Made by a program: the position numbers and the translations under genes
The notes under the pieces: model-generated
Seen by the model: only the letters and a program-made list of their open reading frames with translations
What the model was told of the DNA's origin: nothing
Database searches by the model: none
In this document: piece after piece, positions 36,888 through 40,478 of the stretch
Numbering within the stretch: position 1 is the first letter of the stretch
Layout: every line of letters starts with the position of its first letter
From: Tieghemostelium lacteum
Taxonomy: Eukaryota
Direction: 5' to 3'
Length of the DNA stretch: 64,000 bases
Assembly (NCBI GenBank): GCA_001606155.1
Contig: LODT01000016.1
Location: forward strand, 449,870-513,869

Positions 36888-38144
36888 ATGTTAACACATA
36901 AACAGATTGCAAATAGAATTAAATCCAAAGGTCTAAAGAAACTTAAATGGTATTGTCAATTATGTGAAAAACAATGTAGAGATGAAAATGGATTTAAAGT
37001 AAGTTAATGTTAATACCTATTGAAGTTAATGCGAAGTACTAATATAGTTGTGTTATAGAACCATTGTTCGTCAGATGGACATCTTAAACAGATGGAAATC
37101 TATGAAAAGAAATCGGGATATATGCAACAACAGTTTTCTAATGATTTTGAAAAAGAGTTTCTAAAGTTGGTGTCTATAAGGTATCCTACAACTAGGATAT
37201 CTGCAAATCATGTTTATAATGAGTTTATAAAGGATAGAGATCATATTCATATGACAAGTACGAATTGGTCTTCACTGACAGAGTTTGTCAAACATTTAGG
37301 TAAAACTAGTAAATGTGTGGTTGAAGAGACACCTAGAGGTTGGTTTATAACCTACATAGACAGAGATCCTGAGGTATTAGCAAGACAGGAATTCAAAAAT
37401 AAAAAAGAACGTATGGAAATCTCACAAGAAGATAGAGAGAAATTAGAAATCAACAAGAAAATTGATAAATTGAATAAACTCTATGGAGAGAAGACAACTG
37501 AATATAAACCTACTGAACTAAATACACTGGATACTGCAAATATAAAACTAAAACTAAAGCCTCTTGAACTTACAACTACATCAACTACAACAATAACACC
37601 TTCAACAATGGTTTTTAAAGAACTACAATCTAATGATAATGAAGAGGAAGTAAATACAGGTCCTATTCAACTTAAACCAATGAAGAAAGTAACAGCGCTA
37701 GATGAAATTATGAAAAAAAATCAGATTAAATTCTCATTTAATAGTGGTAGTAAAGTAACTGAGATAAAGAAGGAAGAGGTAATAGAGGAAGATGAAGAGG
37801 ATGCTTGGATAAGAGAAGGTATTATAGTAAAGATTGTTGATAAGGATTTAGATAAATATTATAAACAAAAAGCTGTTGTTCAATCAATAGAATTAAAATA
37901 TTTGGCAAAAGTTACTTTATTGGATAGCCCAGGTATCAGTATGAAAATTGACCAAAACTTTTTAGAGACTGTAATACCTCCGAAAGGAGGTACAGTACTG
38001 GTACTTAAAGGAGCTTACAAAGGATGTAAAGCTAGACTTGTTGATATAAATGTAAATAGTTTCTCTGCAACTTTGGATTTGTTACAAGACACTCCCAAAA
38101 CCATCGAATTATCATACGAAGATTTTTCAAAATATGGTTTGTGA
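36888..38144 (+). CDS. KIN17 DNA/RNA-binding protein (C2H2 zinc finger, winged helix, KOW-like/SH3-like C-terminal); exons 36888..36998 and 37059..38144
   Basis: KGLKKLKWYCQLCEKQCRDENGFK|NHCSSDGHLKQM...HVYNEFIKDRDHIHMTSTNWSSLTEFVKHLGKTSKCVVEETPRGWFITYIDRDPE closely follows the KIN17 consensus. GTAAGT donor at 36999, ttatAG acceptor. Confidence 0.85.
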
Positions 38145-38813
38145 TGAAATTTCATTGAAACATTATCCTAAAAATATTTTTTCATTTTATTTTAATGAAA
38201 TCAGTGATTAATAGGAGATTTTGAAATAAATCACAACTAAAAAAAAATCAAGCAAAAAAAAAAGTACCAAATCACTTCACTTGTACTTTATTAAACAAAG
38301 ATATTTTATTTTTCCCATTGTTCCAATAGAATTATAATCAAAACTTTACCACTATTTATTAATTTTTTTAATTTTTTTTTTTTTTTTTTTTGGTTTTATT
38401 ATTTTTTGTCATTCATTTGTATTCAATTATTTAAAAAAAAGTAAATTAAGTTTACTTTTTTTGCTGGATATGAATATCTTTTCAGTTCAATTGATTGATC
38501 AATATAGAAAAGTTGTATACTGAAATCAATAGAAAATATAAAACTATTTATTATTTAAAGGAAAATTAAAAAAACAAACAAATATCACAAAGAAGGTAAC
38601 AGACAACAAACATCAATCAAAAGAAACCCAACCAAACAAAAAAAAAAGAAAGGAAAAAAAGACAAAAACCTAAAATTAAATTTCAATCAAAGAAATAACT
38701 GTAGAATATAGTCGACTGTTTTTGTATCTTTTTTTTTAAAATATAAACTCAAGAAGAGGAAGGGAGGTTCTAGCAGAAAGAAGAGATATAGGAGGAGAAC
38801 GTGTGTATATAAT

Positions 38814-39498
38814 ATGTGTAGGCTAGAAGAGTTGTTTGTCGATAAAGTCAGCCAACATTTTATATGTCCAATTGGAAAAGGTGTGATAGAAGACCCTATT
38901 ATAACACCTTGTGGGCATACATTTTGTAATTCATGTTTGGGAGGTTGGTTAAATACCAGAAGACAATGCCCAACAGATAGACTACCAGTTACACACAAAC
39001 AACTGATACCAAATTATTTGGTATTAAATTATATAGCGGACCTATCAGTTAAATGTGATCATCATGCGCAAGGATGTCAATGGATTGGTAAATGGTCTGC
39101 ACTATCTTGTCATTTAAGACAATGTCAAGCAGCATTACCTAAAATAAGATTTTGGGTATGTTTTTTTTATGTACATAAAGTGTTCAAACTATTCTAACTC
39201 GACAATTTATAAACAGTTAAAATATCATGTTCCATTTGGTCAACAAATTAGAGTAACAGGTAATTGTGAACAATTGGGTAACTGGGACCCTAAAAAAGCA
39301 TTTCCCCTCAAGTTTAGTCAAGGTGATACTTGGGAAGGAGAAATTATATTGGGATACCAAAGCGGACGTATAGAATATAAATATTTTATCTCTTATTTTG
39401 ATACTGGAGAATTAGTTTATTGGGAAGGTGGTGCAAATAGAGTAGTTTTAATTTCAGGTTCTTCTATATACAGAAGAGATATTTTTCGAAATCCATAG
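38814..39498 (+). CDS. RING-HC + TRAF-type zinc finger E3 ligase-like protein with a C-terminal CBM20 starch/glycogen-binding domain; exons 38814..39155 and 39217..39498
   Basis: RING: CPIGKGVIEDPIITPCGHTFCNSCLGGWLNTRRQCPTD. TRAF-ZnF: KCDHHAQGCQWIGKWSALSCHLRQC. Exon 2: QIRVTGNCEQLGNWDPKKAFPLKF..DTWEGEIIL...IEYKYFISYFDTGELVYWEGGANRVVLI, the CBM20 pattern (LGNW, two conserved Trp, YKY). GTATGT donor at 39156, aaacAG acceptor. Confidence 0.7.
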
Positions 39499-40478
39499 TT
39501 TCATTAAAACTACCTTTTAATATATAATAATAATATAATAATAATAACAATATAATAGTAACTTATAATTTCACAATCATTCAAATTCTCATATAATAAC
39601 ACACTTGACATATAACACACTCCAAATCAGGAATCCAAAAAAAAATCAACAACCATATAAGGTCAACCAAAACAAATCAATAATTTTACTTCTAGATTCA
39701 ATTCATAGAATACTTTATTCATTATAAAATATAGGTCCTCCTTTTCATTTAATTGTTTTTTGTTTAGTTTAGTTTTAGAGAGAAACCAGTAAAATAGAAA
39801 ATGGGAAATCTAAATGCACACACTTAACACCACCACACCACACTCTCAATACATCAAAAATATATTTATTCAATTTATTATAGATGCATTATCCAATAAA
39901 AAAAACATCAAAACACCACACACTCTGACATATAACACAATATTAGTGAGAATGTACATTAGTAATTTTTTATTAAATAATGAAAATAATAGGGAAAGTG
40001 AGATAGAGGGGGTGAATTTCAGAAAAACAAGTTCACCATACAATAATAAAGAATATATTGTTTTATATGTTACATTTTATATAATTAAAAAATCTGAGAT
40101 AACAACATTGGTGAAATTGGCGATTAGGTTTGAGAAAAAGGAGGACATGAAAAAACATTTGTCAGAATCTTGATTTTGATAATCGGAAAACTACTGTTTG
40201 TGGTGTGATTCAACCAGAAAGACATTAGGGTTGGAAATCAACAGAAAAAATGTGAAAATATGAAAATCTCTAAAGAGGAAAACCACCAACTTTTTTTTTT
40301 TTGTTAACTTTTCAAATAATATCAATTTTAATATAAATATATCAATTTATTTATAATCGTGTCAGGTTGTTTGAATATTTAAATAAGTTTTTATATTTAT
40401 TTTAAACAATTTTTTAATTAAAAAACTCAATTGTATATATATATATTTAAACTTATAAAATTATTTAAATAATAAGAA

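Follow-up and report, generated by a model that had tools for sequence, protein, structure and literature searches.

Introduction

Ubiquitin control of glycogen is an active and unsettled question. It bears on Lafora disease, through malin-laforin, on polyglucosan disease, through HOIL-1, and on the recently found passage of ubiquitinated glycogen to lysosomes. In the malin-laforin system (NHLRC1-EPM2A), the CBM20 module of laforin brings the RING ubiquitin ligase (E3) malin to glycogen, where mainly K63-linked chains are made on glycogen-associated proteins; malin works with the ubiquitin-conjugating enzyme (E2) UBE2N and the system is tied to glycogen quality control (PMC6116066). This paper concerns DLAC_03429. 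The gene belongs to the social amoeba Tieghemostelium lacteum and is located in a 64,000-nucleotide stretch of contig LODT01000016.1 (positions 449,870 to 513,869 of the forward strand; the whole stretch is called the window, and positions are counted from its first letter). Its 207-residue product joins a ligase-type module to a CBM20, and we consider this protein and its Dictyostelium discoideum orthologue, DDB_G0270014, to be rather probably a minimal, cytosolic, single-chain E3 targeted to glycogen.

The likeness to malin and laforin lies in the role proposed here, and the E2 of malin, UBE2N, is also that of TRAF6, the best structural match of the amoeba RING. This resemblance had been pointed out in an earlier reading of the DNA made from its letters alone (the sequence-only reading); it holds as an analogy but does not extend to the make-up of the proteins. 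Malin and laforin are two proteins whereas the amoeba has one chain. Besides its C3HC4 RING, malin has six NHL repeats, and laforin has a dual-specificity phosphatase domain in addition to its CBM20; Pfam finds neither extra domain in the amoeba protein. Malin is restricted to vertebrates and amphioxus, and the amoeba CBM20 is nearer to those of glucoamylases and cyclodextrin glucanotransferases (CGTases) than to that of laforin. As far as such domain comparisons go, the likeness is one of convergence and not of orthology.

Three other systems bear comparison. RNF213 (mysterin) is the only characterised E3 found to have a CBM20 in the same polypeptide (PMC11549300). It differs from the amoeba protein in being an animal, dynein-like AAA+ giant of more than 5000 residues in which an RZ finger is the key ligase element and the CBM20 is under positive selection, and the two proteins have no sequence relationship past the domain family. 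In a synthetic system, FKBP-GFP-CBM20 combined with FRB-HOIL-1L through a chemical dimeriser, the CBM20 tethers an E3 to glycogen, and the glycogen is ubiquitinated and routed to lysosomes (PMC13345935). The amoeba protein resembles a natural, covalent version of this tether; the synthetic system differs in depending on the dimeriser and in using an RBR enzyme that esterifies sugars, whereas the amoeba RING would be expected to target protein lysines. Lastly, STBD1 (genethonin-1) and GPCPD1 are cytosolic, non-amylase CBM20 proteins of animals that work on or at glycogen, neither of which has a ligase domain. STBD1 links glycogen to autophagy by means of an Atg8-interaction motif and not by ubiquitin.

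To our knowledge, the known natural systems all use separate proteins or very large multi-domain ligases. The predicted ligase module of the amoeba protein is wired directly to a putative glycogen-binding module within 207 residues, in a host group that offers easy gene knockouts, a well-described developmental mobilisation of glycogen and a reported bias of glycogen on cell fate. The effect of bringing a ligase to glycogen thereby becomes testable with a single gene, DDB_G0270014 of D. discoideum.

Gene structure and transcript

DLAC_03429 is a real two-exon gene that is expressed as one spliced mRNA and one protein (Table 1). A transcript contig (L001), assembled by Logan from run ERR3252990, covers positions 38620-39155 and then 39217-39945; exactly 61 nucleotides are skipped and the open reading frame of 207 codons runs through uninterrupted. 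The precise absence of the intron identifies L001 as a spliced transcript. The first ATG of this contig is the start codon at 38814, and the spliced 207-residue product agrees at every residue (100% identity) with KYR00266.1, the entry for the hypothetical protein DLAC_03429 of T. lacteum. The sequence-only reading had thus arrived at the deposited gene model; its two exons at 38814-39498, 61-nucleotide GTATGT...AG intron and 207-residue product were all found as described, and its exon junction is confirmed by L001. The GC content is 24.6% in the intron, 33-36% in the exons and 29% in the window as a whole.

That the two exons form one gene follows from the transcript together with two further observations. 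The Pfam CBM_20 match crosses the exon junction, as it begins at residue 110 inside exon 1 and rises from 57.7 bits for exon 2 alone, which is without the first strand of the module, to 61.8 bits for the spliced product. In addition, the Polysphondylium violaceum (P. violaceum) orthologue has no intron at the position of Trp114 and a single exon of this gene spans Gly21 to the C-terminus. The proposed occurrence of ligase-type and glucan-binding-type modules in one polypeptide is thus borne out by the hidden Markov models (HMMs), the transcript, the single exon of P. violaceum and the conservation described below, and the transcript data assign exon 2 to the same gene as exon 1.

The phase-0 intron after Trp114 is common to T. 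lacteum, D. firmibasis and Acytostelium. An intron inside codon 21 (CPI/G) was observed in P. violaceum, D. firmibasis and Acytostelium and is absent from T. lacteum, while a third intron, after Trp90, was observed in Acytostelium. The comparison covers the orthologous loci L002 (4001-4822), L003 (4001-4820) and L004 (4001-4705). Introns have been gained or lost within a coding sequence that is otherwise very conserved.

RING and zinc finger module

The N-terminal part of the protein consists of a RING core and a single CCHC zinc finger. Four RING models scored above their cut-offs, namely zf-C3HC4_2 (40.5 bits against 27), zf-C3HC4 (37.4 against 21), zf-RING_UBOX (38.0 against 25.2) and zf-RING_2 (32.4 against 27.3), with family E-values of 1e-9 to 1e-10. 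The Pfam U-box model (PF04564) matches as well, with 35.2 bits against 21.4 and residues 14-70 laid on profile positions 3-60 of 73, and the RING core contains the U-box-type motifs F-x-C-P-I...D-P...L-I-P-N. Unlike the metal-free U-box, however, seven of the RING zinc ligands (C18, C33, H35, C38, C41, C52 and D55) are retained and conserved; among 66 relatives C18, H35, C38, C41 and C52 are invariant and C33 is kept in at least 90%. The domain would therefore be, at most, a RING/U-box intermediate at zinc site 1. It is not a canonical example of the RING-HC finger named in the sequence-only reading, since ligand 2 is Gly21 (CPIG) and the last ligand, ligand 8, is Asp55, the same residue type as in TRAF6.

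Both sequence and structure comparisons lead to TRAF6. In the search of solved structures, residues 13-109 align to the RING and first zinc finger (RING-ZF1) of TRAF6 with an E-value of 1.6e-12. An AlphaFold model of residues 1-114, computed from the alignment of 66 relatives, has a mean predicted local distance difference test (pLDDT) score of 94.2, and Foldseek places it on the RING-ZF1 of TRAF6-Ubc13 complexes with a template modelling (TM) score of 0.79-0.83 and a root mean square deviation of 1.4-1.6 Å over about 100 residues. LNX1/2, RAG1, TRAF2 and RNF125 follow, and the E2-bound RING E3s among the top matches are TRAF6-Ubc13, LNX, RNF125 and TRIM21. By the model, the amoeba module has the same fold as TRAF6 RING-ZF1 (3HCS, 3HCT and 5VNZ), with the CCHC finger predicted to pack on the RING as it does in TRAF6 and with Asp as the last ligand in both. 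None of the four finger ligands (C81, C88, H100 and C104) varies in the orthologues or in the relatives.

The TRAF-type zinc finger proposed earlier from CDHHAQGCQW and CHLRQC, both of which are present, is supported in one respect and not in another. The TRAF6 alignment and the model (TM score about 0.8) agree with it, whereas Pfam zf-TRAF (PF02176) gave no match at E<=1 on the 207-residue protein, in which Pfam also found no MATH domain. These two negative results point to a TRAF6-like cassette and not to a TRAF protein. Compared with TRAF6, the amoeba protein is without the further zinc fingers, the coiled coil and the MATH/TRAF-C domain, has Gly at ligand 2 with a Cys 16 residues upstream, shows the U-box-like 'DP' motif, and has Lys and Gly in place of Leu74 and Met75. 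Positions of the E2-contact type are conserved (Ile20, Trp45 and Pro53), and Arg56 directly follows the last ligand, as does the Arg in CPTCR of RNF4. On the strength of the alignments and the model, the RING and zinc finger module would be expected to have ubiquitin ligase activity.

CBM20 module

The C-terminal part matches Pfam CBM_20 (PF00686) with an E-value of 5.7e-17. The score of 61.8 bits exceeds the cut-off of 23.3, and profile positions 3-88 of 97 align with residues 110-194. The match is thus significant in the segment (residues ~115-207) to which the sequence-only reading had assigned the module, and the four hallmarks which it had listed are all present, at residues 134-138 (LGNWD), 151-157 (DTWEGEI), 168-170 (YKY) and 181-186 (VYWEGG). 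The best matches among solved structures are a fungal glucoamylase (6fhv, E=2.5e-7) and CGTases (E=3.6e-7), followed more weakly by STBD1 (2z0b, E=2e-5), GPCPD1 (8x8k, E=2.7e-3) and the Aspergillus niger glucoamylase domain. Laforin was not among the solved-structure matches at E<=0.01.

Residues W137, K169, W183, E184 and N188 align to CGTase W616, K651, W662, E663 and N667, which we take, following the CGTase and glucoamylase literature, to form maltose-binding site 1. None of the five varies among the dictyostelid orthologues, and by this alignment the canonical sugar-binding site 1 is intact in the predicted module. In the full-length AlphaFold model, of low confidence (pLDDT 42.8), strands are predicted throughout residues 111-202. 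As the C-terminal half has no confident three-dimensional model, the CBM20 fold rests on sequence evidence, and from the same evidence the module would be expected to bind glycogen, that is, an alpha-1,4-glucan.

Possible replacement of zinc ligand 2

Gly21 is not a splicing artefact, because T. lacteum has no intron at this codon and the transcript reads CPIGKG directly. A candidate for the missing ligand is Cys2, located 16 residues upstream of Cys18 (ligand 1). The set examined for covariation comprises the best RING and zinc finger relatives with one representative per 50%-identity cluster. A Cys lies 13-20 (mostly 16-17) residues before ligand 1 in 21 of the 24 RING-like relatives without Cys at ligand 2, compared with 5 of the 57 relatives with a canonical ligand 2 (Fisher p=7.6e-12, for sequences that are related by descent). 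In the variant relatives the upstream Cys sits in a C-x2-[DE]-x-[ILF]-F motif, which the five canonical exceptions do not share. Many of the canonical relatives begin with MG[YF]..., with Gly at the place of Cys2. An N-terminal MG could be a myristoylation signal.

Considering this covariation, the conservation of Cys2 in the full-length orthologues and the confidently modelled N-terminus (residues 1-10 at pLDDT 95), Cys2 may complete RING zinc site 1 in place of the missing ligand 2. The alternative substitute His15, which is invariant in the orthologues and located three residues before Cys18, was rejected since it is not conserved in the C-x2-G relatives whereas the upstream Cys is.

The C-x2-(G/N/D/K/S) first knuckle was observed to recur in a large set of diverse, uncharacterised RING and zinc finger proteins of eukaryotes (P0020, P0033, P0035, P0038, P0074 and others). 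The members with an upstream Cys may represent an undescribed RING subtype with a relocated ligand. An apparent relocation of a zinc ligand to the N-terminus, in so many uncharacterised relatives, matters for any classification of RING domains by ligand pattern.

Conservation and distribution

All full-length orthologues have the same order of RING, zinc finger and CBM20. The CBM20 is the most conserved part, with 85-89% identity in the orthologues except for 70% in the divergent Acytostelium protein P0004, and comparison of the orthologues reveals strong purifying selection on the predicted RING-CBM20 protein. In one species pair this protein is 85% identical while the product of the adjacent Kin17 gene is only 42% identical, which bears out the selection. 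A MAFFT alignment (A2) that combined RING-only and CBM20-only fragments with full-length sequences was dropped, as the CBM20 fragments were laid over the RING region; artificial rows in which RING and CBM20 fragments are joined were left unused because they are not real sequences.

A search of 1.84 billion representative proteins with the family profile gave 12,364 matches. When the best 150 of these were rescanned with separate RING-zinc finger and CBM20 profiles, both domains occurred together only in the dictyostelid family; the rest consisted of 99 RING-only and 50 CBM20-only proteins, the latter including tandem-CBM20 proteins, GH77 glucanotransferases and amylases. A word-indexed search with the orthologue profile added just a few amylase CBM20 fragments. 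Confinement of the fusion to Dictyostelia is well supported by these searches, although it is not proven, as a fusion of two weak domains could rank below the best 150.

The closest RING and zinc finger relative outside the family among the matches listed is P0020 (264 residues, from a 907-nucleotide environmental contig), which has the MCR start and CSIGLG. Two DM9 repeats take the place of the CBM20 at its C-terminus, and in other relatives right-handed beta-helix (NosD-like), BTB or dynein-light-chain domains were observed. DM9 is an immune-lectin domain that binds mannose. The RING and zinc finger cassette seems, from these architectures, to be combined with interchangeable binding modules, several of which are carbohydrate-related.

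Public databases already list the product as a hypothetical protein and give precomputed matches to both Pfam domains, for the orthologues too, so the architecture itself was discoverable. A literature search for RING and CBM20 architectures returned nothing on this protein.

Two copies of the gene were found in Acytostelium subglobosum, one of which (P0004) has Cys as the last RING ligand instead of the Asp of the others. The pair looks like a lineage-specific duplication with one copy diverging. The D. purpureum model P0009 (192 residues) stops early (...ANRIVYN), without the conserved C-terminal YRRDIFRNP strand of the CBM20, and its 3' end was probably mis-predicted.

Table 1. Features of the DLAC_03429 locus (positions in the window) and orthologues of its product.
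Feature	Position or accession	Strand	Details
mRNA, minimum extent	38620-39945	+	1268-nt Logan contig L001, 99.6-100% identity
5' untranslated region	38620-38813	+	no ATG; in-frame stop ahead of ATG 38814
Coding exon 1	38814-39155	+	residues 1-114 (ending ..RFW): Cys2 segment, RING, CCHC zinc finger, first CBM20 strand
Cys2 codon, candidate substitute ligand	38817-38819	+	present in every full-length orthologue model
RING/U-box-like core	38865-38978	+	Cys18-Asp55, C-x2-G...C-x-H-x2-C-x2-C...C-x2-D
Gly21 codon, at RING zinc ligand 2	38874-38876	+	CPIG where CPIC expected
CCHC zinc finger, equivalent of TRAF6 zinc finger 1	39054-39125	+	C81-x6-C88-x11-H100-x3-C104
CBM20 starch/glycogen-binding module	39141-39456, split by intron	+	residues 110-194, Pfam PF00686; W137 codon 39283-39285
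Intron, 61 nt	39156-39216	+	GTATGT...AACAG, phase 0, after Trp114; missing from transcript contig L001
Coding exon 2	39217-39498	+	residues 115-207 and stop (39496-39498); most of CBM20
3' untranslated region, minimum extent	39499-39945	+	AATAAA at 39895-39900
P. violaceum orthologue	P0002		87% identity to T. lacteum protein
D. firmibasis orthologue	P0003		82% identity to T. lacteum protein
D. discoideum orthologue	DDB_G0270014 / EAL72357.1		79% identity, A2 alignment
D. purpureum orthologue	DICPUDRAFT_149039 (P0009)		84% identity, A2 alignment
Synstelium polycarpum orthologue	P0011, fragment		83% over 38% of query
Acytostelium subglobosum orthologue	P0004		72% identity to T. lacteum protein
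Acytostelium subglobosum orthologue	P0005, partial		86% over 62% of query

Proposed function and alternatives

If DLAC_03429 and DDB_G0270014 encode glycogen-targeted ligases, residues 1-108, with the TRAF6-like RING and one CCHC finger, would recruit a ubiquitin-charged E2, while residues ~110-205, the CBM20 with its site 1, would dock the protein on alpha-1,4-glucan, which in the cytosol of a social amoeba would be the glycogen particles. The ligase would be concentrated on glycogen, where it could ubiquitinate particle-bound glycogen synthase, phosphorylase, debranching enzyme or glycogenin, or itself. In this way it would control glycogen turnover or hand the particle over to autophagy. 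Which E2 it would use, what its substrates are and how the cell would be affected are all inferred. Precedents for the single steps are, beside malin-laforin and the synthetic tether, TRAF6, whose RING and zinc fingers build K63 chains with Ubc13, and the Dictyostelium TRAF-like E3 TrafE, which deposits K63-linked ubiquitin that recruits autophagy (PMC10181826). Neither a signal peptide nor a membrane segment is seen on inspection of the 207-residue sequence, in keeping with a ligand in the cytosol, and Pfam finds no domain in it beyond the RING-zinc finger and the CBM20.

Several observations weigh against a glycogen-targeted ligase. On the ligase side, the canonical zinc ligand 2 is replaced by Gly21 in every orthologue, which leaves seven of the eight ligands; Lys22 and Gly23 stand where TRAF6 contacts Ubc13 with Leu74 and Met75; and the covariation of the upstream Cys with ligand 2 could trace to a single ancestral event. 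On the glucan side, site 2 appears altered, as the loop of CGTase Tyr633 is four residues shorter and the aromatic positions are Phe; in the 6fhv alignment Phe121 and Phe147 sit at the glucoamylase Tyr positions that form site 2 (Tyr527 and Tyr556). The full-length AlphaFold model, built from an alignment of five orthologues, reached a pLDDT of only 42.8, and the literature search found no paper on DDB_G0270014. A CBM20 is also no guarantee of glucan binding, as the CBM20 of RNF213 is without a demonstrated ligand (PMC11549300).

The glycogen-targeted ligase can be extended to a bolder proposal, which we regard as possible but tentative: social amoebae would have independently evolved a one-protein equivalent of malin-laforin that ubiquitinates the glycogen particle, with a RING subtype that takes ligand 2 from a Cys ~16 residues upstream. 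The targets would be resident proteins, or the glucan itself by way of an ester-forming E2. Such a protein would drive glycophagy or glycogen mobilisation in starvation-induced development and could couple glycogen reserves to the stalk/spore decision.

A different use of the CBM20 is fairly unlikely, in which it serves as a regulatory input that switches the ligase on or off according to the state of glycogen, like the carbohydrate-binding module of AMPK beta, and the substrates are to be sought elsewhere, for instance among signalling proteins that tie development or the stalk/spore choice to nutritional reserves. According to one report on Dictyostelium, cell-fate preference is biased by how much glycogen the amoebae contain (PMC8606421), and a protein so small has no other substrate-binding domain. 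The strong conservation of the whole CBM20, rather than of the binding site alone, would fit extra intramolecular or partner contacts. No sign of an interdomain interface was found, the full-length model being uninformative in this respect, and localisation is the simplest reading of a ligase that retains an intact site 1.

It is unlikely that the RING is catalytically inactive and that the protein acts as a glycogen-bound scaffold, for example as a dimer with TRAF-like RINGs or as an STBD1-like glycophagy receptor. The Gly at ligand 2 in all orthologues and the loss of the Leu74 and Met75 equivalents would both be expected of such a protein, and TRAF RINGs are able to form heterodimers, as in the solved structure 7l3l. 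On the other hand, the seven other ligands are conserved, and so are the residues typical of contacts with ubiquitin-charged E2 (Ile, Trp, Pro and the Arg after the last ligand); the upstream Cys covaries with the loss of ligand 2 in diverse relatives, which points to a maintained metal site; and the model of the RING and zinc finger is confident throughout, N-terminus included. U-boxes, whose Pfam model matches here too, are active without any zinc.

Recognition of foreign glucans appears quite improbable. The CBM20 would in that case bind alpha-glucans of prey or pathogens in the cytosol, and the ligase would lay down a ubiquitin coat for xenophagy. Mycobacteria have a glycogen-like capsule. 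A precedent is RNF213, an E3 with a CBM20 that has been proposed as a pathogen receptor (PMC11549300), and the TRAF-like TrafE of Dictyostelium acts in xenophagy (PMC10181826). The same MCR...CSIGLG cassette is joined to DM9 repeats in P0020, and other relatives have beta-helix domains. The mode of evolution argues the other way, since the CBM20 is 85-89% identical across most dictyostelids with invariant binding residues, opposite to the positive selection on that of RNF213; purifying selection of this strength suggests that the ligand is constant and endogenous.

That the glucan itself is ubiquitinated is very improbable. In this case the ligase, anchored by its CBM20, and an ester-forming E2 would join ubiquitin to hydroxyl groups of glucose, which is the reaction of HOIL-1 in animals. 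Ubiquitinated glycogen does exist in cells, and a CBM20-recruited E3 suffices for its production and lysosomal delivery (PMC13345935), but such chemistry is on record for HOIL-1, an RBR ligase that proceeds through a thioester intermediate, and the amoeba sequence gives no hint of it; as a RING just activates its E2, an unusual E2 would be needed. Finally, a gene-prediction artefact in which separate RING and CBM20 genes were wrongly joined would find an opening in the stop met on intron read-through (39195-39197) and in the ATG at 39169 that opens the exon 2 frame, but it is refuted by the exact joining of the exons in L001, the start of the CBM20 match in exon 1, the single exon with both domains in P. 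violaceum and the common architecture of all full-length orthologues.

Neighbouring features

The upstream neighbour of DLAC_03429, at 37092-38144 on the forward strand, is at least part of a Kin17-type gene, and the order of Kin17 followed by the RING-CBM20 gene is kept in P. violaceum (L004). In a EukProt species, a merged model of 611 residues (P0006) was found to contain both products, of which the Kin17 part is 42% and the RING-CBM20 part 85% identical to the T. lacteum proteins; this gene model wrongly fuses the two genes. Since P0006 and the Kin17 gene of P. violaceum carry additional N-terminal sequence, the T. lacteum Kin17 gene may have an upstream exon.

A tRNA scan of the whole 64-kb window found no tRNA genes. 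An open reading frame of 119 residues and low complexity (39814-40173, forward strand) overlaps the transcript-defined 3' untranslated region of DLAC_03429 and is probably not a gene.

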